Assembly (NCBI GenBank): GCA_965267575.1 | Contig: OZ254086.1 | Location: 32,001-96,000 of the forward strand | Source of the DNA: Calditrichales bacterium | GTDB lineage: Bacteria > Calditrichota > Calditrichia > Calditrichales > J004 | DNA length: 64,000 bases | Direction of reading: 5' to 3' | Shown here: positions 20,409 to 48,383 of the stretch, one piece after another | Numbering within the stretch: position 1 is the stretch's first letter | Layout: each line of letters begins with the position of its first letter | The notes under the pieces: model-generated | What the model saw: only the letters and a program-made list of their open reading frames with translations | What the model was told of the DNA's origin: nothing | The model's database searches: none | Program-made: the position numbers and the translations under genes

Positions 20409-21132
20409 ATGACTTTTATATCAACCGGCATTAAGCCACTCGACGAACAACTTGCGGGCGGTTTTGAAAAGTGTGGGTTAGTAGTAATAGGCGCGAGACC
20501 GATGTGGGATAAATGGAAATTTATAATAAATATTATGACGAATATTACTTGCGAACTTCAACAATCTTGTATGTACTTTGTTTTAGAATCAGAGCCAGGA
20601 AGCACAGCGGACAGGTTTTCAAAAACGGTAAAAAAGCTATATGACGATGCTGAAGCAAACGATCATAATAAGAGGTTTGGATAAAATCAATGATATAAGA
20701 AATATGATTCGATTGACGGCTCAGTCTCTAAAGCTTAGGGTGGTTATAGTAGAATCCATAAGCAAGATGTATACACATCATATCGACGATGACGAACAAC
20801 ATGAATTGTTTAGAAGCCTGCACGCACTGGCTAAGGACCTCAGTCTGGTTATCATCTTGTTAGACAATTTAAAAAAGATCGACTTGCTTATTGAACCATC
20901 CGATTTTAAACATGAATTAGCGGAATTCTATGCCAGTCAAATGCTCATAATAAAGCGAGCATCGTTTTACGATGATAATTACGCATATGAATTTAATGGT
21001 GAAGATAAATGTGAAGTAGTATTAGTCAAAAACAGACCGGGTGATATAGGAACGGTATGGCTGAAATATAAAAACGGTATTTTTTCTGATGATGATATTA
21101 TATCGAATAACTTCTCGGTAACAGAGTTTTAA
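20409..21132 (+). pseudogene. frameshifted, degenerate DnaB C-terminal-like gene
   Basis: STGIKPLDEQLAGGF..LVVIGARP in ORF1; SLHALAKDL and EVVLVKNRPGDIGTVWL in ORF2; Walker A degenerate (GARPMWDKW); ORFs overlap near an A6 run at 20630-20635. Confidence 0.65.
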
Positions 21133-21458: not shown

Positions 21459-24311
21459 CTACTCTCCAACCTTCCCCAGCAACACTCGCACCTTCTCCTG
21501 CAATTCCGCCAGCGCATGATGCTCACATAAAGCCAGGCTTTTCTGTGCATAAAAACGGGCAGAGTCCGGTTGGCTTTGCGCATGGTATACGCCGGCAAGA
21601 TGAAAGTAGGAATACGCCAGCACTACCGCGCTGTCGTCCAGCAGGGCGCGGTTGTGGGCGATGCTCTTTTCCAGCCAGCGCTGCGCTTCCACCCAGTCTT
21701 GCAGTGACTTGTGGGCCGAGCCAAGATTGTTGAACACCATACCCTGCTGCCCAAGGTTGTTGGATTTTTCCGCCAAGGGCAATGCCTGCTTAAGATAGAT
21801 GAGCGCGGAATCCGGCTTCTGTTGCTTGATATAGCCGGCACCGATCTGGTTGAGCAGCGCCAGCCGCAAGCTGTCTGCTTTGCCGGTCGTGGCGTCATTT
21901 AAATGCAGCAGGTAGAATTGGGTTTGGTAGTGCAAGCGTTCTGTTTCGCTCAAAGACTGCCACCAAGCCTGCTGCATATTCTCGCGCACATTTTGGGTAT
22001 TCGGGTGGTCTGGCCCTAAAAATTTTGTAAGGATTGTGAGCGCTTCGTTGTATTTTTCCAGCGCCCCGGCATAATCACCTTTGGCTCGCAGCACCTCCCC
22101 GATGTTGTTCAAACGTATCGCCACCTGGGGATGATTTCTGCCGAAATAGAGCTCGTCGATTGTGAGAGCTTCACCGTATTTTTCCAGCGCCCCGGCATAA
22201 TTGCCTTGTGACTCCAGCACGCCGCCGATGTTGTTCAAGTCCGTAGCGACATTCGGATGCGTTCTGCCGAAATAGAGCTCGTCGATTGTGAGAGCTTCAC
22301 CGTATTTTTCCAGCGCCCCGGCATAATTGCCTTGTGACTCCAGCACGCCGCCGATGTTGTTCAAGTCCGTAGCGACATTCGGATGCGTTCTGCCGAAATA
22401 GAGCTCGTCGATTGTGAGAGCTTCACTGGATTTTTCCAGCGCACCCATATAATCGCCTTGTGAAATAAGCACTCCAGCGATGTTGTTCAAGATTTTTGCA
22501 ATATTGGGATGAGTATCTCCAAAAGCATTTCTCAAGATCGTGAGTGCTTCGTTGTATTTTTCCAGCGCCCCGCCATAATCACCTTTGGCCTCAAGCACGC
22601 CGCCGATGTTGTTTAAGTCTGTAGCCACCCCGGGATGATTATGGCCGAAATAGTTCTTATGGATTGCGAGTGCTTCAGTGAGTTTTTCCAACGCCCCAGA
22701 ATAATCGCCTTTAAAGTGAAGCACAACGGCGATGTTGTTCAAGACTGTCGCGACATTAGGATGTGTTCTGCCAAAAGCATTCTCGCAGATTGTAAGCGCC
22801 TCATTGTATTTTTCCAGCGCCCCGCCATAATCACCTTTGGCTTGCAGCACCTCCCCGATGTTGTTCAAGACTGTCCCGGCATTGGGATGCATTCTGCCAA
22901 AAGCTTGCTCGTAGATTGTCAGCGCTTTGTAGTATTTCTCCAGTGCCCCCGCATAATCGCCTTGTGAATGAAGCACGGCGGCGATGTTGTTCAAGTCCGT
23001 AGCGACATTCGGATGCGTTCTGCCGAAATAGAGCTCGTCGGTTGTGAGAGCTTCACTGTATTTTTCCAGCGCACCCATATAATCGCCTTGTGAAATAAGC
23101 ACTTCAGCGATGTTGTTCAAGATTTTTGAAATATTGGGATGAGTTTCTCCAAAAGCATTACTCAAGATTGTGAGTGCTTCGTTGTATTTTTCCAGCGCCC
23201 CGGAATAATCACCTTTTGCTTTCAGCACCTCCCCAATGTTGTTTAAGTCTGTAGCCGCCCTGGGATGACTACGGCCGAAATAGTTCTTATCGATTGTAAG
23301 TGCTTCAGTGAGTTTTTCCAACGCCCCGGAATAATCGCCTTTAAAGTGAAGCACACCGCCGATGTTGTTCAGACGCATCGCTACGTTGGGATGATTCCTG
23401 CCGTGCTGCGTGGTATCGATTGCCAACGCTAGTTGGTATGTGGCCAACGCCTCATCGTACCTCGCGAGCTCACCCAATGCTCGCCCCAGCATGTTCATGT
23501 GCTCGGTGTTCCCAGGGGCGGCGCTGTCGGCTTTGTTAAAATAATAGGCCGCGCTGTGGTAGCGGGCCTCTGAGAAATAGGTCTGACCCAAATTGAACCA
23601 AATCTCCGGAAGGCGCTTTTCTGCTGCCCGGCCTTCGTGAACCGTGCGCCTGTCTTTGCGCTCCGCTTCTAAGAAGCTCTTCCTGGCTTCAGTCAATTTC
23701 GTATCGCGCACCTCGTAGGTCGCCGCGGCATTGGCATCATCCAAAGCAGCCAGGCCGCGCAGGTTCAGGTCATCGCTGCTGCGCAGACTCTCCTTGTACT
23801 GGTCCACGGCGGTGGTCAATTCGGCCTCGCTCAGCCCCAATCGCGCCGCCGCCTTTTCCATTTCCAGTTGACGGGCAAATTCCTTCTCTTTACTTTCAAT
23901 CGAAGCATTCAATCGCTGGCGGAAGACGTATTCCAGCATACGCGCGCTGCGCAACAGGGCGAGCGAGCCTTTTTGCGCCAGCAGAATGGTGTGTGGCTTC
24001 TGGTAGTCGGCGTTGCGCGGCAAGCGCAGGAAGCCATCCGGTGGCTCGAGCAGCACCATTCCTTCCTTTTGCACCTCCACAAACAGGTCGCTGCCCGCCT
24101 TCAGGAAATACTCTTCCGCCATCTCCTTCGCCATGCGGAATTCGAAATAGCCGTCTGTGTTGCTGAGCTTGCTGTCAAGCCCCGGTATGCGCACGCTGGC
24201 ACCTGCCACGGCGTTGGAGTCGGCATCGAGCACAAAGCCGTGAATGCGCACCTGCGCAGCCAGCGGCATAGCGGCGCACAGGCAAGCGATAAGAAAGAAT
24301 TTGGTTTTCAT
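21459..24311 (-). CDS. secreted protein with a prealbumin/CarboxypepD_reg-like N-terminal domain and a long array of 42-aa TPRs (kinesin-light-chain-like)
   Basis: Signal peptide MKTKFFLIACLCAAMPLAA; VRIHGFVLDADSNAVAGASVRI; repeated HPNVATDLNNIGGVL..GDYAGALEKYNEALTI. Confidence 0.85.
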   Translation of the reverse strand: MKTKFFLIACLCAAMPLAAQVRIHGFVLDADSNAVAGASVRIPGLDSKLSNTDGYFEFRMAKEMAEEYFLKAGSDLFVEVQKEGMVLLEPPDGFLRLPRNADYQKPHTILLAQKGSLALLRSARMLEYVFRQRLNASIESKEKEFARQLEMEKAAARLGLSEAELTTAVDQYKESLRSSDDLNLRGLAALDDANAAATYEVRDTKLTEARKSFLEAERKDRRTVHEGRAAEKRLPEIWFNLGQTYFSEARYHSAAYYFNKADSAAPGNTEHMNMLGRALGELARYDEALATYQLALAIDTTQHGRNHPNVAMRLNNIGGVLHFKGDYSGALEKLTEALTIDKNYFGRSHPRAATDLNNIGEVLKAKGDYSGALEKYNEALTILSNAFGETHPNISKILNNIAEVLISQGDYMGALEKYSEALTTDELYFGRTHPNVATDLNNIAAVLHSQGDYAGALEKYYKALTIYEQAFGRMHPNAGTVLNNIGEVLQAKGDYGGALEKYNEALTICENAFGRTHPNVATVLNNIAVVLHFKGDYSGALEKLTEALAIHKNYFGHNHPGVATDLNNIGGVLEAKGDYGGALEKYNEALTILRNAFGDTHPNIAKILNNIAGVLISQGDYMGALEKSSEALTIDELYFGRTHPNVATDLNNIGGVLESQGNYAGALEKYGEALTIDELYFGRTHPNVATDLNNIGGVLESQGNYAGALEKYGEALTIDELYFGRNHPQVAIRLNNIGEVLRAKGDYAGALEKYNEALTILTKFLGPDHPNTQNVRENMQQAWWQSLSETERLHYQTQFYLLHLNDATTGKADSLRLALLNQIGAGYIKQQKPDSALIYLKQALPLAEKSNNLGQQGMVFNNLGSAHKSLQDWVEAQRWLEKSIAHNRALLDDSAVVLAYSYFHLAGVYHAQSQPDSARFYAQKSLALCEHHALAELQEKVRVLLGKVGE
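22141..22426. repeat. exact 126-bp tandem repeat within the TPR gene
   Basis: 22141-22266 is identical to 22267-22392, followed by a partial third copy. Confidence 0.9.
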
Positions 24312-24385
24312 TGTGATCCCGCCTTTGCTGCCTTTAGTTTGTGCTTTAACATGCCGTTTTGCAAATCGTAAGGTTCAACTACGAC

Positions 24386-25315
24386 CTACTCGAAAGGAAT
24401 CTTATCTCCGGCAGTAAGTACTTTGTATGCACTAAAACCGGCGTGGCCGTCTTTTAACACGCGCACGTAAACCGAGCTTTCATGTTTGGCTTTCACGATG
24501 AAATTGAAATCACCACTCTCCAGGGTGCGGCCAACGCCAAGCGTATCACCACCAACTTTTTCCAGCACGAAAATATCTGCTTCGGCGACACCATCTCCCT
24601 CTGCATACACGACCCTGCCGTAGTAGCGGGCGCTATCCGGAAGCCAGTTTTTGCTGAGTTTTTCCGGCAAATCCAGGATGAAAGTCGCAATCGCCAGGAT
24701 AGCTGTTACAATTGTCAACCACAGCGCCAGCTTTTTTGCCTTGCTTTTTTCCGCGGCAACCGGTGGCTGATTGATAGTGACATTCCCTCCCGCCTGAATG
24801 ACATTGCCGTGTACGTTTTCTATCTTTTGCTGCAGTGCTTTGACATGTTCAATCGCTTTTTCAGGGGACGATGGTTCTTTTAATTTGCCAAGCCTATCCA
24901 TTACGATTGCAGCGTTGTCCGGGTTCAGTGGGGTAGAATCCCTTCCTGTAGCCAATGCAGAGAGTATTTTCGGGATGTCTTCTTCCGTTGTCGTTCCGGG
25001 GATGGCGTTAATGGCATGAAGCGGAGGCGGCAGGGGCGTATCATCCAACACGTACGGGATGACAGGCTTTTTTAAAGCAAGGGCCGTGTTCCATTCAAAT
25101 TCTACATAGTATGACCTGCTGGCATTTTTTGACCAAAAAAGGACGATCCCATCGCTGGCGAGAATGGCTTCACCGATCGCTTTTGCCCAGCTTTGACTGC
25201 CATAAAGACTTTGCTGGTGGCTCCACACGTTGCAGCCACGCGTTTTTAAAGCCGTCTCGATTTCTGCGACTGTCTTCGAATCGTCATGAGCGTAACTTAG
25301 AAAAACATCCGGCAT
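24386..25315 (-). CDS. TIR domain, transmembrane helix and C-terminal prealbumin-like domain
   Basis: DVFLSYAHDD, FWSKNASRSYYVEFEW (TIR Glu retained); TM LALWLTIVTAILAIATFIL; YYGRVVYAEGDGVAEADI; GGAGG RBS before 25315. Confidence 0.85.
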   Translation of the reverse strand: MPDVFLSYAHDDSKTVAEIETALKTRGCNVWSHQQSLYGSQSWAKAIGEAILASDGIVLFWSKNASRSYYVEFEWNTALALKKPVIPYVLDDTPLPPPLHAINAIPGTTTEEDIPKILSALATGRDSTPLNPDNAAIVMDRLGKLKEPSSPEKAIEHVKALQQKIENVHGNVIQAGGNVTINQPPVAAEKSKAKKLALWLTIVTAILAIATFILDLPEKLSKNWLPDSARYYGRVVYAEGDGVAEADIFVLEKVGGDTLGVGRTLESGDFNFIVKAKHESSVYVRVLKDGHAGFSAYKVLTAGDKIPFE

Positions 25316-25776
25316 TGGATCCTCCAGAGCACCGACCTTCAACCGTAGGGTTCGTACTCCACAGATTTTGCTATTCTCCCTCTTATTCAATTTTACAATT
25401 AAGGAGACGTAATTGTAATGATGTAATCAAAATAACACATATTATCCGAATTATCCCGAATCAAATGCACGCAGTCATAGAGCCGCTTCACCGCGTTTTT
25501 AAACTGGTTTTCTGGTAAAATGCAAAGCAGATCCGCGAATCGCAATCAAATGGCTGAGGTACAAGTCATATTCTGCTTCCATTTTGGGACTAAAAAGTGA
25601 AGCTTTTGACTCGCCTATCGCTGCAATAAATTGTAGTTCACATTGAATTTTTTAAGTAATCTCATCTCTGGTTATTTGTATATTAAAACTCCTATTTTTT
25701 AAATCTAGAGTTTTATTTCAATTTTTAAAAAATTATTGTATAATTATAGTAATAGTACATATTCTCTAACTCTAGC

Positions 25777-27598: not shown

Positions 27599-28435
27599 AT
27601 GGATATTTTGGTATCAATTGTAATTTCAGTCATGGCATCTATTTATGCAATGATTTTAGCCGATAAGTATGGATTACACAAAAATAAATATATATTCATT
27701 TCAATCACCGCTGTTATCGTTTTCTTTTTTGCAAATATTATGATTGGGTTTTTGCCGGCCGGTTCTACAAAGCCACAAACAATCGTACCACAAGATTCCA
27801 TACCGCAAGGACCAAAAACTTCAGAATTTTCTTTTAGAACGGAGATGCAATCCAGTCTAAAAGAAAAATTTTCTAAGCTACAATCCAGAGTGAAAAATAT
27901 CCAAACCGATTTCATTACTATCAATTTTACTAGCTTTAAGAGCAAAAATTTTAAGGATCATGAACGAACTAAAATCAGAAAAATTAGAGAAGAGGTACCA
28001 TTGCTAGCAATCGAATACGAGACCATTAATGATGTTGAACTAACCCCTGCATACCAAATATTGAAGTATGATAATTTAGCTTATATAAAAACTATTTTTG
28101 CGGAATTGGAATCTACTATGGATAGCAAAAAAAAGTATATTAGAAAAGCAGCTCTAGATTTAAAAAATGCCTTTAGTATTTTGAAGGATGTTAAGAATTC
28201 ACACGATAGAATTGATAACGATTATATCGTCAGGCTAAAAATATGGATTACCAAAAACGACACAGAAAGCCGATTATACTATTTAGCTTCTTGGCTTAAC
28301 GCATTGAAATATAAAATTTCCGGTAATGAATTGGATTGTGAGAATTGCAAAAAGGACTGGGCAAAAATAGAAGACAAGTATAAACAAGAATTCCCTGCAT
28401 CAGAGCATCCGAGCCTATACCTTTGTATCAAATAA
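27599..28435 (+). CDS. hypothetical membrane-anchored helical protein
   Basis: Two N-terminal hydrophobic helices, then a helical soluble region; starts 1 bp after the upstream stop. Confidence 0.65.
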   Translation: MDILVSIVISVMASIYAMILADKYGLHKNKYIFISITAVIVFFFANIMIGFLPAGSTKPQTIVPQDSIPQGPKTSEFSFRTEMQSSLKEKFSKLQSRVKNIQTDFITINFTSFKSKNFKDHERTKIRKIREEVPLLAIEYETINDVELTPAYQILKYDNLAYIKTIFAELESTMDSKKKYIRKAALDLKNAFSILKDVKNSHDRIDNDYIVRLKIWITKNDTESRLYYLASWLNALKYKISGNELDCENCKKDWAKIEDKYKQEFPASEHPSLYLCIK

Positions 28436-28517
28436 AAGAAAGCCTTTATTGTGATTTTTTGCAACATTTATGTTTCATATTGCTTATATTTCGTCTAACG
28501 CTTAAGGAGGCAACAAA

Positions 28518-28655
28518 ATGTCACGACGAGTAAAAAATGCAATTGCCATTATATTTATTACGATTTTCTTGGTATTTGGTGTTTTTTTTCTTTACGCACA
28601 ATCCTCCCAAATAAGCATTCCCCCACCTTCTGAAATGCCTTTTGATGGATTATAA
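28518..28655 (+). CDS. 45-aa secreted peptide 1 (MSRRVKNAIAIIFITIFLVFGVFFLYAQSSQISIPPPSEMPFDGL)
   Basis: AAGGAGG RBS at 28504-28510; basic N-terminus plus hydrophobic core; motif shared with the next two ORFs; absent from the ORF track. Confidence 0.75.
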   Translation: MSRRVKNAIAIIFITIFLVFGVFFLYAQSSQISIPPPSEMPFDGL

Positions 28656-28754
28656 TTGTTAATTTCAGATTATTTCTTTCAATTTAAAATTTTAGTGACG
28701 AATAAATAACTTTACGAGCAAATTGTATCAACTTGTCAAATGGGCAAGGCCATA

Positions 28755-28940
28755 ATGAGCAAAAAAAAGTTACTTACGATTTCGTTGGGAATAGTCTTGA
28801 TAATTTTATTAAAGTCTGACTTCTTAAATATCTCAAGTCAAAATTCACTTAGGTTACCAGATTGCTCATCTTTGCCTAACATAGATGAAAAAGATATTAA
28901 AATAGCTTCTCCCAGCCAATTGCCACCTTTTGACCTATAA
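28755..28940 (+). CDS. about 61-aa secreted peptide 2 (MSKKKLLTISLGIVLIILL...LPDCSSLP...ASPSQLPPFDL)
   Basis: Signal-peptide-like N-terminus; two xxxSxLP motifs; alternative start at 28740. Confidence 0.65.
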   Translation: MSKKKLLTISLGIVLIILLKSDFLNISSQNSLRLPDCSSLPNIDEKDIKIASPSQLPPFDL

Positions 28941-29072
28941 ATAGATTTGCATTTTAATTTTTTTTGCAACAAATTTGTTGCATCTTAAATAATCAATGAA
29001 ATCAAATTTCTTCTTTACCAACATTTGCGGCCCTTTTCAGGGAAATAAACCTTAGTTAGGTGGGAGAGTTCA

Positions 29073-29234
29073 ATGAACAACATCATTATTCTAGTAGCAA
29101 TGGTAATAGTATTGATGGTCGGATTTAAAGGAGATGAAACGGAACAGGTTGCTCTACCACCATCCTCTGAGTTGCCTACTGTAGATGGAAATTCTTCCCC
29201 ACACTCATCTGACTTGCCAGATGATGGGCTGTAA
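29073..29234 (+). CDS. 53-aa secreted peptide 3 (MNNIIILVAMVIVLMVGFKGDETEQVALPPSSELPTVDGNSSPHSSDLPDDGL)
   Basis: Purine-rich RBS; hydrophobic N-terminus; two PxSSxLP motifs and a terminal DGL as in peptide 1; absent from the ORF track. Confidence 0.7.
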   Translation: MNNIIILVAMVIVLMVGFKGDETEQVALPPSSELPTVDGNSSPHSSDLPDDGL

Positions 29235-29320
29235 AACAACTATGGAATCTTAAGAGCTTTTATTTATTAGTTTAAATTAAATTATATATGTGTACATATA
29301 CGATTTAATTATATACGTCG

Positions 29321-29464
29321 CTACAGCACCCTATAATACTCCTTAATCTTCCGGGCCATGAGCTTGCGCCGTAGCTTCAGGAATTCAGCATAGTTTTCGA
29401 CGGCACGGTTTCCCATGCCACTGGGTATACAATTCATCTAAAAGTTTTCAAGCAGCTCGTCACG
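29321..29464 (-). repeat. diverged copy of the 3' end of the GmrSD-like gene
   Basis: Aligns base by base with 30761-30904, including the stop codon. Confidence 0.85.
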
Positions 29465-29779
29465 AGTGTTGATTCTGAGCTTCAATCCAATATGATTTGA
29501 TAAAAATGAAAAAACACTCATGCCGCTATACCTGCATTATAGTTCCCCGCAGGGAACTTTTATTTACACCAACGTTTCAATGCAACTATGTTCGATTAGC
29601 GCCAGTGCGCATTAACGGGGCTAAATCGTTCCAGCTACTATTATAAAAACCAGGGGCTTTGGTTCCACGCGTGGAACTTTCACTCACATTCAAATCTATG
29701 TTTTAAATAAACAAAAAAGTTACATGCATGTAACTTTGTCATTTAACCAAAAATCCCTCTCAAACTCTTCATCCGTATT

Positions 29780-29919
29780 TCGAGCCACAAAAGCGGTAAC
29801 ACGGAGCCGCCAATAACAACAATCGCGTCTTTTAACTCGCCAAGAATATGGAGTAACTCCACCAACACCGATTTGTTGGCTTCTACTTCGCGGTCTCCGT
29901 AGGCTGATTTGCTGTCCAT
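29780..29919 (-). pseudogene. N-terminal fragment of an AbiEii-like nucleotidyltransferase toxin
   Basis: MDSKSAYGDREVEANKSVLVELLHILGELKDAIVVIGGSV, overlapping the end of the AbiEi fragment; left end approximate. Confidence 0.55.
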
Positions 29920-30209
29920 TCCTGCTTGATTATCCTTTCATATAAAAAATTGGCGGCTTCTTCACCGCGTTCTTTGTTGCCTGCAAGGTCTAAGTACAAC
30001 TGTACACCTGAGACGACCGGAATGATATCGTAGTCGCACGATTGATAGAATACGCCTCTCACATAAGGTTTAAGCAATACAACGTTAGAGCCGCTGTCAA
30101 CGGCCTTTAAATCAAGCGCTTGTTTCTGGTCTTCAATATCGACTTCTATGTAGGCATGCATGCGTTTATATCGCGTATAGGATGCCACGCGAAAGTGGCA
30201 CGTGTGCAA
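29883..30209 (-). pseudogene. C-terminal fragment of an AbiEi-type (type IV TA) antitoxin
   Basis: VDSGSNVVLLKPY..GVFY..PVVSGVQLYLDL..KERGEEAANFL; N-terminal HTH missing. Confidence 0.7.
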
Positions 30210-30289
30210 CTAAGTCGAAAGAATATTAATCCCAATAGGTTTTTATGAAAGAAAGGTTCTCTGCAGAGAACCTTATAGCCCAAAACACT

Positions 30290-30394
30290 TTATAGTACTC
30301 TTTAAATCCTCCAGGTAATGAGCCTGCGCCGCACTCTATGCGGTGGGATACAAGTTCATCGCAACATTTCAAGCAACTCATCACGTTTAATGAT
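30290..30394 (-). repeat. heavily decayed, internally deleted copy of the GmrSD-like 3' end
   Basis: TATAGTACTCTTTAAATCCTCC..GAGCCTGCGCCG..GTGGGATAC..AGTTCATCGCAA..TTCAAGCAACTCATCACGTTT. Confidence 0.6.
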
Positions 30395-30483
30395 TTCAAT
30401 CCCCCTATAATTCGATTAAAAGAGTTCCACGCATGGAACTTTTCTGCGAAATCTTAAATGTTTCAATCTCAGTATGATTCGAT

Positions 30484-30615
30484 ATAATACGCCTTAATCT
30501 TCCGGGCCATTGGCTTACGCCGTAGCTCCAGGAATTCATCATAGTCTTCTACTGCGCGCTTTTCCATGCCGGTGGGGATGTAGTAGTTCATCTCAAAGTT
30601 TTCAAGAAGCTCGTC
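30484..30615 (-). repeat. diverged copy of the GmrSD-like 3' end
   Basis: Aligns with about 30772-30901, with small indels. Confidence 0.85.
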
Positions 30616-30760
30616 AACCCTTTGTCTGATCGAGATAGCTGCGTGGCCTATGGAAATAAAAAGTTACCTGCGGGTAACTTTAGATATTAGTTGCGAAGAA
30701 AAAGCCAAAAGAGCACATTGCAACGTGTTTCTTATAATCTTCATAGACAAATCGTTTTTA

Positions 30761-32557
30761 CTACAACACCCTATAATACTCTTTAATCTTCCGTGCCATA
30801 AGCTTGCGGCGTAGCTCCAGAAATTCATCGTAGTCTTCTACGGCGCGGTTTTCCATGCCGGTGGGGATGCAGTTCATCGCAAAGTTTTCAAGAAGCTCAT
30901 CGCGTTTCGTGATACCGCCGAATTTCAGACCACCGCCGTTGGTTTGATCGAGAATGGCTGTGAAATACTCTGAAGGAGCCTTATTGCCTATTGAGATATT
31001 GATCTCACTTTGCATTATGACATAATTTGCAATTTGGTTATAGCGGCCGCGTGTCAATCCAAACTGTTTTAAATAGGCTTTGGGGAAAATATGATGTACA
31101 TCGCCCTTGTGCGTTATAAGATCGTGAACCGTTATGTCTCGAGACAAGAAGCCTTTATCATTAAGCTTAACCTGGGCAGCAAGATAGGTATTAAAATAGG
31201 GACTGCTGGCAACGGATGAATTGAATTGCTGGGGCAATCCATGGTCCCAGAAAGCGTCGGAAAGCTCGGCACTTTCCACCTGCTCCAGATAGCTTTCAAA
31301 TCCTTTTTCATTAATCCTTCTAATATCATAATCCATGGATGACTCGGGAGACGCCGAATAGCGTCCTGTCAAGATTGAAATAACAAACCATTTACGCACA
31401 TACTTCTCAATGAGTGCCGCATCGTATTTCTTTTCACGGAGATGCAGGTATACGATATAGGCAAAATTCAAGGTCATTTGCGATCTGATCATTGATGCTT
31501 CGACAAAACCGGCGGAACGCAGGATCATGACAAAACGCTTAAAGTGCGTTTCATTCATGAAGTTAAAGATACCATGTTTCAGACGCTCGAATGATTCTTC
31601 AGCAATACTCTCTTCGTAGCCGCGGGTTTCGAAGTTACGGCCGGAAAGCAATGCAACAAGAACTTCCAATTGGCCGCGCTTAAATTCTGATGTAAAAGCC
31701 ACGCGCAGCATATCCGTATAGGAAGGATCGTACAGATCATCGTTCTCGTTTTTAAGCCACGCCATTTTGGGGAAGTATTCTGTTTTGACAAAATCCTTAT
31801 CCACTTCCACCAATTGAGAGTAAAATTCCGGAGCGATAGCCAAATGACAGAAGTAATCGATGCATTTACGCAATGTACTACCGCCATAGATCTCGTTGGC
31901 GGCAATCTTGGACATGGCAAAGTCCGCCTGACTGAGCACAACACCGGCTGAGTTAATCCGGATGAATATCTCGGTAACTGTTTCTATATCCAGATTAGAA
32001 TTAAGCTCAATTAGACCAATGGGATTATTAACAATGCCTTTAAGTGACTCTATACTTTCGTGAATGGCGTCATGATCGTCAATGGCGTTACGTTCACAAT
32101 AGGTGTTAACCATCTTCAGCAGCTTAAAGCCCGGTGTGAAAACGGACGCAATATCCGGTATCCAGGCTTTATCTTTTCGTATGGCCGGGTTAGACACTTC
32201 GAAACGTCTTTGTTGTGGGTGAAAGGCGATACGGATATGGACTCTGCGATAGTCTTTATTGATAACCTGCTGTCCCAGAAGGGTTGCCATTAACGCCGTA
32301 ACTCGCTGCTGTCCATCAATAAGAATTCTTTTGCCCGACGAAACAGTACCATCCTTGAGCTTAACATTGGGATTGCGCCAGGCGATAAGATAGCCTATAG
32401 GGTAGCCCTGGTAGAGTGAATCCATCAGGTCTCTGACTTTGGTGGAGCTCCATACAAAAGGACGCTGTATCTCCGGGATAGCAATCTCATTCGACTGGAC
32501 CCAGGTAAGCAATGTTTGAATAGGATGCTGGTTAACGGAGTATTGTTGGATGACCAT
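30761..32557 (-). CDS. GmrSD-like type IV restriction protein (DUF262 plus C-terminal HNH-like DUF1524)
   Basis: [40 protein letters not shown]. Confidence 0.85.
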
Positions 32558-35718: not shown

Positions 35719-38700
35719 TTACTCCCCTTCTCCCCTATGCGCGGCCCGCGGGTCCCCCGGCGGTGGATCTAAACGGGTTTGATAGGGCTGCCCCGTACGC
35801 ATGGCTTCGGCCATTTCATCATAGATTTCCAAGATGACGCGTTTGGTGCGGTACTCGCCGTGGGCGGCTATGTCTTTGCGTTTGACGATGGGGAAGGTTT
35901 CCATGATGTAGTCGACATCATCCCGTTCGATGCCGTATAGATGAAAATAAGCTGCATCCAATTCGCAGCGTATAAGAAACCGGCGCTCTTCATCCCATAC
36001 AAAGGGGTAGCTACTAAAACCGCATTCTTTCGCCAAAGGCTTTATATCATATGCTGTATAAGACAATTCAATCACTCGGTCACACACCATATTCAGGTGT
36101 TGAACGCTATATGAAGCTGGAGTAATTGCCGGCAACTGTCGTAATAAGTAAAAGTTAATATTTGTACCACCTATTTTTGTCCGCGCCAAATAATCAAAAA
36201 CAAAAGTATTTAGGTTTTGCAATAAACAACACTCCAACTGACTATTCTTATCAGTATTAATTATAAATTCGCTGTCTCCGAGTCCTAATTTTGGGCAGAA
36301 TTTTGCAATAATGCTTCTTTCGTTAGTCGATGGACCAAATCTTCGATAGGATAACAACCAGTCTTTTTCAATTTGTGAGATTTCAGTCTGATTTACCCAG
36401 TAATTGGGTATAGGCAAAAAGCTTTCATCTTGATGCTCTGTTAAAGTAATTAATCTCGTTTCCCCGTTATCAGAATAAGTAGCATACCTATGGTCGAACT
36501 GGTGCATCATCTTCGCTTCATACAGTGGCAGGTATTTCTCATCTCCCTTGCAGAAAACATTGCCGCGCAGCTCCCAGCCATCTTCTTCCAGTTGCTCGCG
36601 GGTGCGGAAAAGGTGCGAATCATTGGACATATCAAACATACGGACAAACTTAATGCCCCATGGATTGCCGTCCGGGTCGTCTTCTTTGATCAGCACGGGG
36701 ACACGGCGGTAGATGCTTTTGGTCAGCTCAGCGTCGCGCTTGCTGCGGAAAATAGGACAGGTTTTGGTGTTGGGGTTGAGCAGTTCGATATCTTCGGCCG
36801 TCAGGGTAAAATGCTTCTCCGAATCACGCAGCTCTTCCGTGCCCTGGGCAAAAAAGACAAAATCGGCACCCTGCCGGGCCGGACGTTTTATGCCGCTCAT
36901 GGTCAGCAGACAAAACTTATAGCTGCGGTGGACCCCCTGAAAAATAGCCCTGCGGTTTTCAAAATCATACAGACTGTGCAGCATCGCCTTTTCCATCAGG
37001 TCCTGGAAGAAAAACTTGGTGGTGTCGTCGGTGGCAATACCGGAAGGCACAATACAGCCCACACGCCCTGTCGGATTGATGATGGTTCGCTTGGCTTCGG
37101 CAAACAGGGCATAGGTATTTACATCGCCCCGGCCCGTTAAAGCATACAGACCGCTGTCACGCACAAAATGGCTTTCTCCTTCAGCCTTACGCCGGTCTTC
37201 CAGGAATGCCCTGTACAGCGTCGGGTCTTCCGTCTGCAGTTCTGCAATCATCTCGCGGCGACGTGCGGCATTAGGCGCATCGGCAATATCCGGGCGGCGC
37301 GTGGCAAACCACTCTTTCTCCTGCAGTTTGATGCGCTCCCATGGCGGGTTGCCCAGCACCACATCAAAACCACCGATCCAGCCGGTCTCCTTATTGTCCG
37401 CCTGCTCGCCCGTGCCCGGCACATGGAACACATCGGGGAATTCGATATGCCAGTGGAAAAAACTGTATTGGTCGGCCAGGCGGTTTATCTCTTCATCCAG
37501 CCAGTCTGGTATAACTGCCGGCCGTTCCTGCACACGACGAAACACTTCATGGGTAATGGGATAGTCAAACTGCTTTGATTTCTTCCACACAAAAGCCGCG
37601 CACCAGGTATCGGCAATCAGCTTATTCAGAATGTAATCATCGGATGAGCGATGTTCGTTAAACAGAAAGCTTTTACGCGACACCGCTTCAAAGGAGTCAT
37701 CAGGCAGTGTATCGATATCCTGCACCGTGTCGGACAGGTTGCCGTACCGGAACCACAGGCCGGGTTCATGAAACAGACTTTTCTGACCCCTTTCGCGTTC
37801 CTGTTTGTTGCGTTTTTTATACTCGCTGCAATAGGCTCTGTTATCGCCTTCAATGGGTTTAAAGGCATCATCGGGAATACCCTTATTGATCAGGGCCGGT
37901 GTTGTGCCCAGCAGGCTGTTACCACACAGAATACGGTGATCCAGAAAGGAGAGCGGTTTGCCCGGTTCCAGCGCTTCCATCCACAGCCCCACCTTGCACA
38001 GCTCCACCGACATTTCATTGATATCTACGCCGTAGATACAGTGGCCGATGATATCACGCAGCGCTTTGCGGTTCTCTTCCGGCGCAGCTTCTTCATCGCC
38101 TGTGCGGGCAAAGGCCAGCTTACGGGCCATGCGGTGTGCCGCAGCAATTAAAAAATGTCCGCTGCCACAGGCGGGATCGCATATTTTTAAATCCAGGATG
38201 GCCTTTTCAGGATCGGCGTTTTTCAGTGCTTCATCCAGCACCGGGTCCAGCGCGGAATTCAGCAATTCACGGATCAGGCTGGTAGGCGTGTAATAGGAGC
38301 CGGTGGTCTTGCGCTCATGCCCGCCGGCCGTCTTAAGCTCAAAGCTGCCGCCTTCCGTGCTCAGTTCCGGGTGCAGCTCCAAAAGCGATTCATAGATGCT
38401 GCCCAATTCTTCCGACCCGGTGTTTTTAAAGTCCACCGGCCGCCGCACCCCACCATCTTGGATAAAGGCCAGCGCTCGGATGGCATCCAGGAAATCATGG
38501 TTGCGGATATCGGATTGCTCCAGGTGGGGAATGGTGGCATCGGAAAACAGGAAACTGCCCAGGGCCGGCAAAGCCAGTTCAGGACATCCGTCCGGATCAC
38601 TGAGCTTTTGCATCACCAGCTTCAGGCCGCGATAGAGATCGCTATTACGGGTGCCGCGCTGCCGTTGCGCCAGCCGCCGGAAACGCATGGTGGAATAGTA

Positions 38701-39663
38701 ACGGGTGTAGATTTCTTTGGCGCCATCGGGTGCTTCCGGGGTGAGCAGCAGGTTACGGTCTTCGGCAGTAAACAGGAAGATCAGCCGGTAGACCAGGCGC
38801 AGCAACTGGCGATAATAATCCTGCTTGTCCAGCGCACCGCTGCGAAGTTTTTCGCGTAAGCCATTGTTACCGGGATAGTTGAGAAAACCGCTGCCCAGCG
38901 CCGTGATCGTCTCTTCCACACCTTTGCGCAACTGGTCCAGCGCTCGCGTTCCCTGCTCCTGCGCCGATTGCGACCATCGTTCCAGCCAGCACTCTTCCGG
39001 CTTGTCCGCTTCCACCCGTGATTGATGACCTAATATCCAGAGCAGCACGAAGTCGGCATAGACTTCGCCTTCCATCATCGCTTCCAGGTCGAACTCCACA
39101 TAGGCCTGGCGCGTCAGGCTGACATTATCACGCAGGATTCGCAGCTTAAGTCCGTTGGATAGAAAACCCCACAAATGGTCATCGGAACGATTAAGGAATT
39201 CCTGCAGCAGGCTGTGCGGGCTTGCACTTGCGGCTCCGGCAACACCTTTTGTACGCCGGTCCAGGTCGATCTTAAAGCCCAGCAGGTGAATCGGCACATG
39301 GCGCCAGGTATGCGAGATGCTGTATTCCTTGTTCTCCAGTACAAAACGTTTGGAAGGCTGCAGTCGGCCATAGCCAAGCTCACTGAAGATCTGCAGCAGC
39401 CAGCGTTCGCGGGTCAGCGTAGTGCCTAAATCTTCATGCGGCAGTTTGTTGCGTTGTGTGCTGAACGATTGCCAGGCGCCCAGCAGGCGGTTCCAGGCGC
39501 GGTTGATCGCTTCGTTAACTTTTTCATTGGGCAGCAGGTGAAAGCTTTGCGGATTCAGACCATCCACATCTTTGGCGCTGACCAGACGCTGCAACAGGTC
39601 CGGCGGCAAGATGGCACCTTCCACCTGTATTGTTGTAAAGAGATCGCGTTTCTTAGTTTGCAT
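35719..39663 (-). CDS. Eco57I/DrmMI-like adenine methyltransferase (type IIG-like)
   Basis: RKTTGSYYTP, DPACGSGHFL, FDVVLGNPPW; C-terminal target-recognition region. Confidence 0.9.
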   Translation of the reverse strand: MQTKKRDLFTTIQVEGAILPPDLLQRLVSAKDVDGLNPQSFHLLPNEKVNEAINRAWNRLLGAWQSFSTQRNKLPHEDLGTTLTRERWLLQIFSELGYGRLQPSKRFVLENKEYSISHTWRHVPIHLLGFKIDLDRRTKGVAGAASASPHSLLQEFLNRSDDHLWGFLSNGLKLRILRDNVSLTRQAYVEFDLEAMMEGEVYADFVLLWILGHQSRVEADKPEECWLERWSQSAQEQGTRALDQLRKGVEETITALGSGFLNYPGNNGLREKLRSGALDKQDYYRQLLRLVYRLIFLFTAEDRNLLLTPEAPDGAKEIYTRYYSTMRFRRLAQRQRGTRNSDLYRGLKLVMQKLSDPDGCPELALPALGSFLFSDATIPHLEQSDIRNHDFLDAIRALAFIQDGGVRRPVDFKNTGSEELGSIYESLLELHPELSTEGGSFELKTAGGHERKTTGSYYTPTSLIRELLNSALDPVLDEALKNADPEKAILDLKICDPACGSGHFLIAAAHRMARKLAFARTGDEEAAPEENRKALRDIIGHCIYGVDINEMSVELCKVGLWMEALEPGKPLSFLDHRILCGNSLLGTTPALINKGIPDDAFKPIEGDNRAYCSEYKKRNKQERERGQKSLFHEPGLWFRYGNLSDTVQDIDTLPDDSFEAVSRKSFLFNEHRSSDDYILNKLIADTWCAAFVWKKSKQFDYPITHEVFRRVQERPAVIPDWLDEEINRLADQYSFFHWHIEFPDVFHVPGTGEQADNKETGWIGGFDVVLGNPPWERIKLQEKEWFATRRPDIADAPNAARRREMIAELQTEDPTLYRAFLEDRRKAEGESHFVRDSGLYALTGRGDVNTYALFAEAKRTIINPTGRVGCIVPSGIATDDTTKFFFQDLMEKAMLHSLYDFENRRAIFQGVHRSYKFCLLTMSGIKRPARQGADFVFFAQGTEELRDSEKHFTLTAEDIELLNPNTKTCPIFRSKRDAELTKSIYRRVPVLIKEDDPDGNPWGIKFVRMFDMSNDSHLFRTREQLEEDGWELRGNVFCKGDEKYLPLYEAKMMHQFDHRYATYSDNGETRLITLTEHQDESFLPIPNYWVNQTEISQIEKDWLLSYRRFGPSTNERSIIAKFCPKLGLGDSEFIINTDKNSQLECCLLQNLNTFVFDYLARTKIGGTNINFYLLRQLPAITPASYSVQHLNMVCDRVIELSYTAYDIKPLAKECGFSSYPFVWDEERRFLIRCELDAAYFHLYGIERDDVDYIMETFPIVKRKDIAAHGEYRTKRVILEIYDEMAEAMRTGQPYQTRLDPPPGDPRAAHRGEGE

Positions 39664-39675
39664 AATCTGCTTCTT

Positions 39676-42513
39676 CTACTCCGCCAGCGGCAGAAAAACG
39701 TAAATGCCCAGTACATCCACGGGCAGTAATGGCCTGACTTTATAGGTTACACCACGCAGGTTGGACGCGCTGCGCACCCGCTTGTGGGCTTCGGCCAGTT
39801 CTTCGGCCATCTCCTGTGCTGTGTTGTCAATTTTCTTCTGGACGGGTGTAAAATTATCGGTGGTCCTTCTGACCTGGTGCCTGATCATGTCGGGCGTAAT
39901 ATTGGCATCGGGCTGCGCTTCCAGCAACGCGTTGATGCGTTCTTTGCTTAGCCATTGCGGATCATCATGCCCGCCATTGAATCCAAAGACACTTGCTTCT
40001 TCGGAGAGTAATACCTTCTCCTGCCCGCTGCGCACGTTAATGATGTGAAAGCGGAAACGGCATAACACCAGTATCGTCCGCTGCTCCACCTGTCGCGTTC
40101 GTATGGCGCCACAACGTTTGGTGATGCTCTCGTTGCCGGGATCGAGCGTGGTGTCCAGCACATAGTTTGCCAGCCCTTCCACCAGCGGATGGGTGCGGTT
40201 CAGGTAGAGCACATCGTCTTTGACGGGCAAATCAAAATTGGCGTTAAACACATTTTTGTTGATGTTCAGGATATCTTTCAATGCCAGCGGCATCTCCTTG
40301 ATGTCAATACGCAATGCGCCGTTTTCGGAAATGACCGCTTTATGGGCTTTCAGCACCTGTTTAGTAAACCAGGCCACATCCTGTTGCGTCCCGATCGCTT
40401 CACGGGCTTTACGCAGCTCTTCGGCCACTTCATCGACCTTGATGGTCGCCTGGGCAAACATCGCCCGTGAGCGTTTCTCGCGGTCATGAACGGCATCCCA
40501 CTTACGGTGCAGGTCTTCTTTCTGCGGCTGCAGATACTCTTCAAATCCCGGCAGAATCAACTGGTTGACTTTCCGGTCCCGCTGACCGCGCAGCAGCAGC
40601 CCTTCAAAGACCGCTTCAATCACCTGGTCCGTCTTGGCCGGCACCGGCACCGAAACACCAAGCGAGTTGCGGATGGTTTTATGCTTACGCAGAAGTACAT
40701 CCAGTACAATACCGTCGATCTGGTTATCGATGCCGTAATAGGTGATCACCTTTACCTGCGGACTGGGCTGCCCGAAGCGGTCCACACGTCCTTCGCGCTG
40801 TTCATGGCGCGTCGGGTTCCAGGACAGGTCGTAATGCATCACCGCGTTAAAATGGTCCTGCAGGTTAATGCCTTCGCTCAGGCAGTCGGTACAAACCAGC
40901 ACGCGTTTGTCAAACTCCGACATCGCCGCCACCCTGCTTTCGCGCTCCGCAGGGGGCAGATGGCCGGTTACCGGTACCACTTCCACTTTGCCGCTAAGGT
41001 GTTCGCGTAACGCATTTGTCACATATTCAACCGTGGGGATAAAGCGGCAGAATATGATCGGCCGGTAGCCGTCTTTTATCAATCCTTTAATCAGATCAAT
41101 TGCTTTTTTCAGCTTGAGATCGTTTTCGATACCCTGCAGTTTGTCTGCGGACCTGGCAAGGTCCAGCAAGCGCCGGCGGTTGTTTTGTGCGTCTTGCGCC
41201 AGATCACCCAGGTCGCTGCCCGGTGTCACATCAATGCTTTCCGCCGTATCGTCATCCATCAGATCGAGCACGGCATGTTTGCCCACTTCATCGGCCTGCT
41301 GTTCATCTTCCGTATCTGCAGATGCCGCACGGGTACGCAAAGTCGCCGCCGCTGCCGCAGGACTGGATGCCAGTGAACGCAGCAGGGCCAGCGCCGACCA
41401 CCACCTTACGCGCTGTTTAAAAGCGCTGTCGCTATCTTCCTGCACCGATTCACGCACGTAAGCTATAATCTTTTCGGAGAAAGCCTGATAGGCCGCAGAC
41501 AGGTTATAATTTTCTTCCACGTCGGTTCCGCTGCGCTCGGGAAACTTGGTCTCTTCACCCAGGTAGTCTTTGATGTTACCGCGTTTGCGCTGTACAAAGT
41601 AACGGGCCAGATCGCGCCGTCTGTGCTCGTTTTCGGAACCGGTCAGGTCTTCGGGCAGGTCGGCAAAATCGGGCTTCAGAAAGGTTAACAGGGAGCGAAA
41701 GGCTTCTTCCTTGCCGGAATGCGGTGTGGCCGTCACCAGCACCATGTGACGGTTTTCATCTCTGGACAGTCCCGAGACCAGTTCGTAACGCTGATGCCGT
41801 CCGCGGTTGTTTCGATCGCCCCGGGCACATGTATGCGCTTCATCCACGATAACAAACTCCGGGCAGGAACGCAGGAACTCATCACGCCGCTTGTCCGACT
41901 TTATATAGTCCATGGAAACGATGACAAAGGGATAATGCTCGAACAACGACTCACCAAGGCGGCATTTCTTTTCCAGCTTACGCGCCGTGCTTGGCAGAAC
42001 CAGCTCGGCGTCGATATGGAATTTATCGCTTAGTTCTTTTTGCCACTGCTCAGCCAGCTGTGGCGGGCACAACACGGCGATATTTTCAATTTCTCCGCGG
42101 TCCAGTAACTCGCGCGCAATCAGTGCTGCTTCAATGGTCTTGCCGATACCCACGTCATCGGCAATCAGGATACGCACCGGCTCCAGCTTCAGAGCCATCA
42201 GTAGCGGCACAAGCTGATAAGGTCGCGGCTCCACGGCGATTTTGCCAAAACAGCGGAACGGACCGGCGCTGGAACGAAAACCGATACGCAACGCATCCCG
42301 CAACAGCTTGCAGGATATAAAGTCACCCACGTCTTCGGGATCGGGCAGATCAAAATGGGCCGGTTCTATCTCTTCCAAAGTTGGTAAAATCCCGGTCATT
42401 TCCGCATCGGTGCCACCCAGTGGCCGCACCATCACCAGTTCATCCGATGTACCGGGCAGCACAACCCAGTCGCGTTCCCGCACCCTTACAAGGCTTCCTA
42501 CACTATAATTCAT
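39676..42513 (-). CDS. SNF2-family helicase (DrmD-like)
   Basis: LIADDVGIGKTIEA, DEAH, TATPHSG, SEGINLQ, WNPTRHEQREGRVDRFG. Confidence 0.9.
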   Translation of the reverse strand: MNYSVGSLVRVRERDWVVLPGTSDELVMVRPLGGTDAEMTGILPTLEEIEPAHFDLPDPEDVGDFISCKLLRDALRIGFRSSAGPFRCFGKIAVEPRPYQLVPLLMALKLEPVRILIADDVGIGKTIEAALIARELLDRGEIENIAVLCPPQLAEQWQKELSDKFHIDAELVLPSTARKLEKKCRLGESLFEHYPFVIVSMDYIKSDKRRDEFLRSCPEFVIVDEAHTCARGDRNNRGRHQRYELVSGLSRDENRHMVLVTATPHSGKEEAFRSLLTFLKPDFADLPEDLTGSENEHRRRDLARYFVQRKRGNIKDYLGEETKFPERSGTDVEENYNLSAAYQAFSEKIIAYVRESVQEDSDSAFKQRVRWWSALALLRSLASSPAAAAATLRTRAASADTEDEQQADEVGKHAVLDLMDDDTAESIDVTPGSDLGDLAQDAQNNRRRLLDLARSADKLQGIENDLKLKKAIDLIKGLIKDGYRPIIFCRFIPTVEYVTNALREHLSGKVEVVPVTGHLPPAERESRVAAMSEFDKRVLVCTDCLSEGINLQDHFNAVMHYDLSWNPTRHEQREGRVDRFGQPSPQVKVITYYGIDNQIDGIVLDVLLRKHKTIRNSLGVSVPVPAKTDQVIEAVFEGLLLRGQRDRKVNQLILPGFEEYLQPQKEDLHRKWDAVHDREKRSRAMFAQATIKVDEVAEELRKAREAIGTQQDVAWFTKQVLKAHKAVISENGALRIDIKEMPLALKDILNINKNVFNANFDLPVKDDVLYLNRTHPLVEGLANYVLDTTLDPGNESITKRCGAIRTRQVEQRTILVLCRFRFHIINVRSGQEKVLLSEEASVFGFNGGHDDPQWLSKERINALLEAQPDANITPDMIRHQVRRTTDNFTPVQKKIDNTAQEMAEELAEAHKRVRSASNLRGVTYKVRPLLPVDVLGIYVFLPLAE

Positions 42514-47698: not shown

Positions 47699-47822
47699 GG
47701 TTTTTTACCCATTTATGGAAATTGGATTGTTGAAAAGTATATAGATCAGTGGTTATATACAATAGTGATCGAGCTTACGATGTAGAAATATTTTTATACA
47801 CAACAAAAGTAGGGACAAAATT

Positions 47823-48248: not shown

Positions 48249-48383
48249 GCAATTTTCGCGTATACTTTTACGCTGTTTTCCAAGGAGATTTATTTAGCTT
48301 TTGAATGTCATCAAATTTTACAAAGCATCCTTATCTTATATCTTTGAATTAGCAATTTTATTTCAGGCTTTTTACATTAGATT

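Follow-up and report, generated by a model that had tools for sequence, protein, structure and literature searches.

A 1.4-kb gap without an intact gene lies between two convergent transcription units in a 64,000-nt stretch of the genome of a Calditrichales bacterium (contig OZ254086.1, positions 32,001 to 96,000), here called the window, and is occupied by seven short palindromes, H1 to H7 (Table 1). Interleaved with these are three displaced ends of the intact GmrSD-type gene that borders the gap, the stump of an abiE operon, and 30-mers that resemble a CRISPR repeat. The hairpins look like ordinary RNA stem-loops kept by selection and not like a new gene-swapping signal. The fuller view, that they are structure-selected stem-loops of terminator or REP (repetitive extragenic palindromic) type, multiplied together with relic units and now mostly leftovers, has in our judgement about an even chance of being correct.

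Seven covarying palindromes at one locus

The genome (G000) comprises 4.73 Mb in one contig with 49.6% G+C. All seven palindromes were confirmed where a preceding sequence-only reading of this DNA had placed them. In the core that they share, GTT and a variable triplet are followed by a four-base loop, the triplet's complement and AAC, with stems of 6-9 bp, loops of 4 nt and cores of 16-24 nt; six stems are perfect, the single mismatch of H4 being the sole imperfection. That reading had described GTT/AAC and a YGCR loop as nearly constant with a deviant copy at 30192, which is H4, and an inner triplet that varies while staying self-complementary, and both descriptions are borne out. In an alignment of the seven all 21 cells of the inner three pairs are paired and 7 of the 21 have changed on both sides, and the GTT/AAC and the loop C are invariant throughout. 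Across all nine pairs of the helix 87% of the cells show pairing, with a covariation score of 0.392 against 0.152 ± 0.052 in shuffled alignments (0 of 500 as high), and sliding the partner register by 1-3 columns lowers the pairing to 32-54%, the seven sequences being related copies so that the shuffle and slide controls overstate their independence. Two stem subfamilies are evident, GTTCCN (H1, H2 and H6) and GTTACN (H3 and H7), and the spacing is irregular, ranging from 57 to 537 nt start-to-start.

Genome-wide there are 21 perfect GTT-N3-N4-N3'-AAC hairpins, seven of them with a YGCR loop, and six of these seven lie within 1.14 kb (window 29542-30678), where ~0.005 would be expected. A chance origin of the cluster is excluded. 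A covariance model built from the seven recovers them and nothing else in the genome at E<=10. The palindromes are real, homologous and covarying, and the pattern of changes supports selection on their palindromic symmetry. From the compensatory variation it had been concluded that selection acts on a structure rather than on an operator; the first half of this holds insofar as the symmetry appears to be selected, but covariation alone would also fit diverged operators of dimeric regulators.

Six of the seven have predicted stems of -7 to -12 kcal/mol (H1, -11.9 kcal/mol, z -4.7), whereas H4 has no stable fold (z -0.1) and scores 26.2 bits with the covariance model. A scan for the terminator consensus flags four of the seven, H5, H6 and H7 on the minus strand and H1 on the plus strand, and counts 8 terminator-like sites in 2.6 kb vs 2.1 ± 1.6 in shuffles. 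H7 stands 79 nt past the stop codon of the GmrSD gene. H1, with a strong T-run on the plus strand (TTTTATTT), is the first hairpin that transcription from the plus-strand unit would meet.

Table 1. Features of the gap and its surroundings, in window positions; psiR denotes the CRISPR-repeat-like stretches
Feature	Position	Strand	Description
H1	29541-29558		AGTTCCC-CGCA-GGGAACT, stem GTTCCC/GGGAAC
H2	29662-29677		GTTCCA-CGCG-TGGAAC, stem GTTCCA/TGGAAC
H3	29716-29737		stem AAAGTTACA/TGTAACTTT, T-run on minus strand
H4	30192-30212		one G/A mismatch, loop CGTG; abuts 5' truncation point of AbiEi remnant
H5	30252-30275		stem GGTTCTC/GAGAACC; after GmrSD tail B, before marginal psiR(f)
H6	30423-30440		stem GTTCCA/TGGAAC; final 18 nt of 37-nt 'spacer' between psiR(d) and psiR(c)
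H7	30659-30681		stem AAAGTTACC/GGTAACTTT, then TTTTTATTT on minus strand; z -4.5
GmrSD tail A	29321..29480	-	last 48 codons of an earlier allele, one in-frame stop
GmrSD tail B	30280..30392	-	most decayed; internal deletion and frameshift
GmrSD tail C	30469..30658	-	~190 nt, internal deletion of ~33 nt
abiE stump	29777..30191	-	~103 aa of AbiEi C-terminus and first ~47 aa of AbiEii; AbiEi_2, E 1.2e-6
psiR(a)	29481..29507	-	gapped score 32 (29506-29481); joins to tail A
psiR(b)	29574..29603	-	gapped score 34 (29598-29574)
psiR(c)	30393..30422	-	5 mismatches/30; gapped score 44 (30421-30394); joins directly to tail B
psiR(d)	30460..30490	-	7 mismatches ungapped; gapped score 40
psiR(f)	30228..30250	-	marginal, score 18, p 0.03; between H5 and H4
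GmrSD-type gene	30761..32557	-	intact, 598 aa; GmrSD_N, E 1.2e-28
Three small paralogous ORFs (open reading frames)	28518-28655, 28740-28940, 29073-29234	+	45, 66 and 53 aa
Tyrosine integrase	19185-20300		start of low-GC region
Three-gene block	35719-47698	-	matches to DrmMI/type IIG methylase; DpdE/DrmD-like SNF2 helicase; 1731-aa DruE-like helicase (MZB and DUF559 domains)
DUF2779/Cas4-like nuclease gene	48384-49838	+	after the DrmMI-DpdE/DrmD-DruE block
HTH_17 protein, excisionase-like	51784-52209		near end of low-GC region

Gene relics between the hairpins

Three further copies of the final 110-190 nt of the GmrSD gene lie downstream of it, all on its strand: tails A, B and C. Tail C begins directly after H7 and has its last four codons replaced at the start of psiR(d). 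Between tail A and the intact gene 23 of 144 bases differ, 15 of them at third codon positions, with 15 synonymous against 6 non-synonymous codons; tail C shows 14 differences, 10 at third positions. Because of this third-position bias tails A and C are read as stumps of earlier working alleles and not as neutral copies made in place. Judged from these substitutions, the comparison shows divergence under purifying selection inside working genes.

The bounds of the abiE stump come from tblastx comparison with intact operons in G010 and G036, in which the homology begins at 30191, right after H4. A 5'-truncated gene piece follows four of the seven hairpins at a distance of 0-63 nt, and two of these within 3 nt: the gap is 0-1 nt between H4 and the AbiEi remnant and 0-3 nt between H7 and tail C, while H6 is separated from tail B by one 30-nt repeat and H1 from tail A by 33 nt and a repeat. 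H3 follows the 3'-truncated abiEii, homology to which is detectable until ~39 nt before the hairpin. The sequence-only reading was right that the hairpins punctuate gene fragments and that one copy sits exactly where the AbiEi fragment starts. It had missed the series of three GmrSD tails and the repeat-like 30-mers, and these change the interpretation. Hairpins, covariation and punctuation stand, but the recombination reading attached to them is not supported.

This layout resembles displaced gene-end arrays (rhs-type C-terminal displacement, Campbell-type insertion-duplication) in that three 5'-truncated 3' ends are stacked behind an intact gene and have the divergence typical of once-functional alleles. 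Unlike those arrays, the tail is here the conserved and not the variable part of the protein, and hardly any cargo lies between the tails, just hairpins and repeat-like 30-mers. No second tail was found at the 24 GmrSD-homologue loci checked, nor any blastn match of the array at all 30 such loci.

Repeat-hairpin-repeat units in this genome and its relatives

The comparison set comprises 86 genomes of the phylum, G000 included, the phylum holding one class only. A DNA search of relatives found a CRISPR array in G029 that matches the gap. The array adjoins cas6-cas8b1-cas7-cas5b-cas3-cas4-cas1-cas2, typed as I-B with NCBIfam and Pfam. When the whole of G000 is compared without gaps to the array's 30-nt repeat, the two top matches (5 and 7 mismatches; next best 9) both lie in the gap, and their start-to-start distance, psiR(d) to psiR(c), is 67 nt, the period of the G029 array. 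In gapped alignment four repeat-like copies are significant, all on the minus strand, against a maximum of 24 in 30 shuffles; further repeat-like stretches after H2, after H3 and before H7 are not significant and were not counted. The minus strand is taken as sense because the arrays in G029 and G011 follow cas2 and a leader-sized gap on that strand, and the repeat so read ends in ATTGAAAC, which we take to be the usual type I-B 5' handle.

A genome-wide search gave no match to cas1, the cas3 HD domain or I-B cas7, and Rfam gave none at E<=1 in 28400-31000. A CRISPR array proper was rejected, as the repeat-like 30-mers differ mutually, three of the 'spacers' are homologous and a naive array finder detected no array in the genome. 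Off-target spacer integration into the GmrSD gene was likewise dropped, the intact gene not being repeat-like (local score 14).

On the minus strand one unit runs psiR(d), 19 nt, H6, psiR(c), tail B, and another psiR(b), 15 nt, H1, 33 nt, psiR(a), tail A. The upstream flank of H2 is homologous to that of H6, with the repeat 3' end TTAAAAC followed by AT..AGATTT (5 of 300 shuffles as good). H1, H2 and H6, all of the GTTCCN subfamily, each fill the 'spacer' of homologous repeat-hairpin-repeat units; since they share flanks they were copied as larger units and not as free hairpins. For H3, H7, H5 and H4 the repeat-like neighbours are marginal at most.

Among the 86 genomes the I-B repeat forms arrays in G011 (30 copies), G029 (34 copies) and G018 (at a contig edge), and occurs singly or paired in G000, G002 and G052. 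The trailer of the G011 array holds two degenerate repeats interleaved with hairpins ATTCCCGC-N4-GCGGGAAT (L013 4770-5030; G011:C1 ~4498770-4499030). These hairpins are members of a REP-like family (ATTCCYGC-N4-GCRGGAAT) that is dispersed in 117 copies, with tandem clusters and C:G to T:A covariation in the stem. The 28-nt linker between the G011 hairpins is confined to the trailer and looks like a worn repeat itself.

In G002, of the same family as G000, a repeat one mismatch off the I-B repeat of G011 and G029 lies ~160 nt upstream of the cas3 gene of a type I-C operon and divergent from it (L254 1938-2031; G002:C1 ~3437-3530), with a weaker stretch of repeat-like sequence (score 22, background frequency 0.005) before it. 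The 41-nt 'spacer' is mostly hairpin (CCGTTCCC, 13-nt loop, GGGAACGG) whose stem core GTTCCC/GGGAAC is that of H1, and the mini-array is bracketed by an 8-bp inverted repeat, ATCCGTG.../...CACGGAT. The hairpin recurs on two other contigs (3 identical-stem copies), within a loop-conserved palindrome family, and the other two copies have no repeat-like neighbour. G002 contains one match to the I-B repeat in all, and no array with that repeat was found in it. A search of the phylum for a GTTCCN hairpin followed by the repeat start gave six matches, of which only those in G000 and G002 are real, the other four lacking repeat-likeness. In three genomes, hairpins from three different families take the place of a spacer between degenerate copies of one type I repeat.

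G000 also has REP-like families of its own, e.g. ATTCCYGC-N4-GCRGGAAT with 35-41 copies and C:G to T:A covariation. At genome positions 2,624,275-2,624,800, outside the window, seven REP-like hairpins of ATTCCTGC and ATTCCCGC variants form a tandem cluster with a unit of ~144 nt, in which GAGTGGGATTG reproduces positions 16-26 of the I-B repeat exactly. The idea that native REP units generally include a repeat-like motif was rejected, since GAGTGGGATTG is confined to this one tandem cluster and so points to one event; it may be there by chance or by a single capture.

The repeat-hairpin-repeat units could themselves be working small-RNA genes, CRISPR RNA (crRNA)-like regulators or RNA anti-CRISPRs of the Racr/Cracr kind, which a mobile island would carry to hijack the I-B or I-C Cas proteins of its hosts, with the hairpin as terminator or decoy 'spacer'. 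We regard this as improbable, and no more probable its extended form, in which hairpin-in-spacer units would be a distinct class of CRISPR-derived small-RNA gene and the three copies of the island a stacked decoy or regulator disarming the I-B/I-C systems of new hosts. The attraction lies in finding four significant repeat-like 30-mers, one pair of them at the exact array period, in a genome in which no Cas genes were found, on an island with an integrase and an excisionase-like HTH_17 protein, when relatives of the same order carry I-B arrays of this repeat and G002 has its hairpin-spacer mini-array close to cas3. There is also precedent, three reports describing mini-arrays within cas loci and, on plasmids and phages, such mini-arrays in stacked form (10.1101/2023.03.03.530964, 10.1101/2024.10.29.618823, PMC10651486). 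In the first of these the operational definition of a mini-array asks for a pair of repeat-like sequences separated by 15-60 bp; the 37 nt between psiR(d) and psiR(c) fall within this range, and the 66 nt between psiR(b) and psiR(a) narrowly exceed it.

The units resemble CRISPR mini-arrays and crRNA-like genes (CreA/CreR; solitary repeat units (SRU)/Racr, Cracr) in that two degenerate repeat-like sequences flank a spacer-sized 37 nt; they resemble them also in having a counterpart beside cas3 in G002 and in lying on a probable mobile island. They differ in being away from any cas locus, in a genome where neither cas genes nor an array were found, in having 'spacers' that are mutually homologous, mostly hairpin and without a seed-matched target, and in being interleaved with dead gene tails, which interrupt them. 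The search for targets of the spacer seed covered the cas loci of two hosts (G011 and G029), the window and the genome and returned nothing notable: no run of at least 9 nt to the spacer 5' end and no notable 15-16-mer with <=3 mismatches occurs in the two cas neighbourhoods or the window. Moreover the repeats have decayed, with 5-7 mismatches or gaps, just three of the seven hairpins are clearly in such units, and a consensus scan places no sigma-70-like promoter directly upstream of any unit, the only minus-strand sites being at 30566-30538 and 28682-28655. No viral contig matched the I-B repeat or the composite of repeat end and hairpin, and a metagenome scan for that composite gave 14 matches, none with a complementary stem. 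A variant would be that REP-type hairpins may home specifically to CRISPR repeats, which would explain the same layout in three genomes.

The hairpin family elsewhere

The searches covered plasmids, phages, viral contigs, the 86 phylum genomes and 30 GmrSD loci, and metagenomes by composite pattern only. No second locus with the hairpin family was found in plasmids, phages, viral contigs or the phylum. The strict hairpin pattern has complementary copies in G000 only among the 86 genomes, and elsewhere in them the covariance model finds eight sites, which were judged not to be of the same family. The six of these that were inspected are all strong hairpins, five with a YGCR-type loop; four have the full terminator form (A-tract, GC stem, T-run), one a T-run only, and one (L200) a CTCG loop without a T-run. 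None of the 30 GmrSD loci has a family hairpin downstream of the gene, so the hairpin is not the gene family's own terminator. blastn in 'distant' mode with 29240-30760 found no match in plasmids and phages.

In viral contigs the pattern AAAGTT-N3-YGCR-N3-AACTTT gave 15 complementary stretches among 80 of 105; ten of the 15 come from one large phage fragment and were set aside as an unrelated palindrome upstream of ribosome-binding sites. The AGTTCC.. and AGTTAC.. patterns gave 36 matches in viral contigs, 9 of them complementary, which is the chance level. A 76-kb viral contig (G086, IMGVR_UViG_3300013103_000005, estimated 18% complete) carries 26 copies of the palindrome GTTTAACGC(G/A)TTAAAC, which in three copies inspected stands 10-15 nt upstream of a ribosome-binding site and is probably a phage-wide regulatory or processing site.

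These results bear on the proposal of the sequence-only reading that the array is an undescribed cassette or recombination signal, akin to attC. On this view the hairpins would be active single-strand DNA substrates of recombination or transposition (of the attC, REP/RAYT (REP-associated tyrosine transposase) or IS200/IS605 end type), through which a recombinase shuffles the modules of a defence hotspot. We consider this unlikely, though less so than the small-RNA interpretation. The position of four hairpins just upstream of 5'-truncated pieces, and of H3 after the 3'-truncated abiEii, is as it predicts, and covarying stems with a constant stem base and loop are seen in protein-recognised hairpins. 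The hairpins between degenerate repeats in G011 and G002 belong to dispersed REP-like families (117 copies in the one, 3 identical-stem copies and a cluster in the other), and G000, besides its own covarying REP-like families, has five Y1-transposase genes. But the window has none of the five Y1_Tnp matches, of which the nearest is at genome position 1,198,105, and no recombinase is encoded within 9 kb. No copy of the hairpin occurs in the genome outside this 1.1 kb, and in the 85 other phylum genomes there are none except strong hairpins, mostly of ordinary terminator form. The covariance-model scan that had been proposed as a test of breakpoint association in related genomes found no family copy beyond this locus, and the motif marks no other breakpoint in the genome, the 85 others or the 30 GmrSD loci. 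The irregular spacing is unlike that of bacterial interspersed mosaic element (BIME) arrays, and for H1, H2 and H6 the flanks were duplicated along with the hairpin.

The resemblance to attC, in particular, fails in detail. attC sites are 57-141 nt long and imperfect, with extrahelical bases, R''-L''/L'-R' boxes and RYYYAAC...GTTRRRY cores. Like them, the palindromes here fold, lie at boundaries of gene-sized pieces, begin with GTT and end with AAC, but they are far shorter and more perfect, and their core nesting is opposite to that of attC. attC sites follow intact promoterless ORFs and need IntI, whereas between these hairpins stand truncated tails, the stump of an abiE operon and 30-mers resembling the repeat, and IntI was not found: in a genome search with TIGR02249 the best of 10 matches reached 127.6 bits against a cut-off of 265, and all look like ordinary tyrosine recombinases. 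An integron attC array was rejected on these grounds.

The alternative that had been offered alongside, operators of AbiEi, fares worse. Broadened to duplex-DNA operators of dimeric regulators (AbiEi, or those of former toxin-antitoxin or restriction modules), with the covariation reflecting diverged specificities, it seems to us very improbable. Perfect palindromes with constant outer half-sites AGTT...AACT would suit it, paralogous dimeric regulators can presumably yield palindromes that differ yet stay symmetric, and H4 touches the abiEi remnant. However, H4 is the only hairpin to do so, and the contact is with an internal truncation point and not with a promoter; no hairpin lies upstream of an intact gene start, and at least five different regulators would be needed, none of which is present. 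For AbiEi and Rv2827c the described operators consist of two 23-bp repeats, separated by 3 or 13 bp and situated inside the promoter (PMC7319586), against arms of 7-9 bp here. The two genomes with intact abiE operons, G010 and G036, have no match to the model at E<=0.05.

Proposed model: structure-selected stem-loops copied with relic units

Taken as terminator- or REP-type stem-loops, the seven would constitute a private family of short extragenic elements with an A-rich 5' flank, a stem of 6-9 bp, a YGCR tetraloop and a T-rich 3' flank, in which selection would act on the fold, most likely at the RNA level. New GmrSD versions would have been installed repeatedly, each pushing the previous 3' tail downstream, to leave the three tails; the remains of the CRISPR-like array and the abiE stump would have been caught up in the same process, in an order of stacking that we infer. 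Hairpins would have been copied within larger units, either a tail with its downstream hairpin or repeat-hairpin-repeat, and the compensatory changes would have gathered while the copies still worked as stem-loops in different lineages. As the tails derive from alleles that once worked, a stem-loop linked to them would have been preserved by the same selection regime. At present H7 would terminate the minus-strand GmrSD operon and H1 the plus-strand operon, and the inner five may be relics or insulators. The breakpoints beside hairpins would be the leavings of illegitimate recombination at palindromes and T-runs; REP sequences were reportedly found by Shyamala and colleagues in 1990 at the join-points of tandem duplications in Salmonella.

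The hairpins resemble intrinsic (Rho-independent, often bidirectional) terminators in their A-tract, short stem, tetraloop and T-tract, in the place of H7 and H1 at the ends of convergent operons, and in that the model's other matches in the phylum are strong hairpins with the same type of loop and mostly of terminator form. They differ in sharing an invariant GTT/AAC and loop C, in being AT-rich and too dense, and in that several have no usable T-run. With REP and BIME elements, such as the families in G011, G000 and G002, they have in common that they are short extragenic palindromes with stem covariation, clustered and at rearrangement joints, and REP-like hairpins also stand between degenerate CRISPR repeats in G011 and G002. 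In contrast to those, all seven copies are at one locus, without regular BIME spacing or a nearby RAYT gene, and three were duplicated with their flanks. A dispersed REP family in G000 was rejected, the covariance model at E<=10 and a regular-expression scan finding just the local copies. Palindromes of P-nucleotide type, made from fragment ends, were dropped because all seven share GTT/AAC and the ends are therefore not arbitrary.

Several facts weigh against this interpretation. The stems have just 3-4 GC pairs, H2 and H4 have poor T-runs on both strands, and H4 is unstable. Seven terminators in 1.1 kb exceed the needs of termination, and the invariant bases exceed what a generic terminator requires. 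Tail A has no family hairpin downstream. The placing of four hairpins just upstream of 5'-truncated pieces is equally predicted by a recombination signal.

The ingredients, i.e. terminator- or REP-like hairpins, displaced tails and degenerate mini-arrays, are known; their combination is new, and so is the finding, repeated in three genomes, of hairpins where a spacer would stand between degenerate type I repeats.

Genomic setting

Upstream of the GmrSD gene lie matches to DrmMI/type IIG methylase, DpdE/DrmD and DruE models (Table 1). Together with the nuclease gene that follows, the stretch 35719-49838 has a mixed DISARM/Dpd/Druantia-like composition. Homologues of the GmrSD-type protein (loci L015-L044) have 58-82% amino acid identity and come from assemblies labelled as many phyla, including archaeal metagenome-assembled genomes, which suggests that this single defence gene has spread horizontally very widely. 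The plus-strand unit consists of two genes (606 and 278 aa, without Pfam or PADLOC match) and then three small ORFs, which end at 29234; each of the latter encodes one hydrophobic helix and the C-terminus ...PPS(E/Q)(L/M)P..D(G)L, and is of membrane-peptide type.

In the surrounding region, ~18-52 kb, the G+C content is low and patchy, and the region is bordered by polysaccharide-utilisation genes and a 3146-aa ORF. It is probably an integrated mobile island, with an integrase and many defence genes. At 21459-25390 (minus strand) a 950-aa protein made almost entirely of tetratricopeptide (TPR) repeats adjoins a 334-aa TIR-domain protein, possibly a TIR-based defence pair. For a 163-aa ORF at 20641-21132 (plus strand) the match is limited to the C-terminal half of DnaB-like helicases, and this ORF is probably a truncated replication gene of the island.

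Implications

If the hairpins are structure-selected stem-loops copied with relic units, the locus would be a legible record of turnover at a defence hotspot, in which successive alleles left their tails, and in which a CRISPR-type array lost its Cas partner and decayed while the stem-loops survived because their fold mattered. Covarying palindromes beside gene fragments do not alone indicate a recombination signal. Should the recurrence of this layout in three genomes be no coincidence, it would link REP-like or terminator hairpins to the birth or decay of mini-arrays and crRNA-like regulators.

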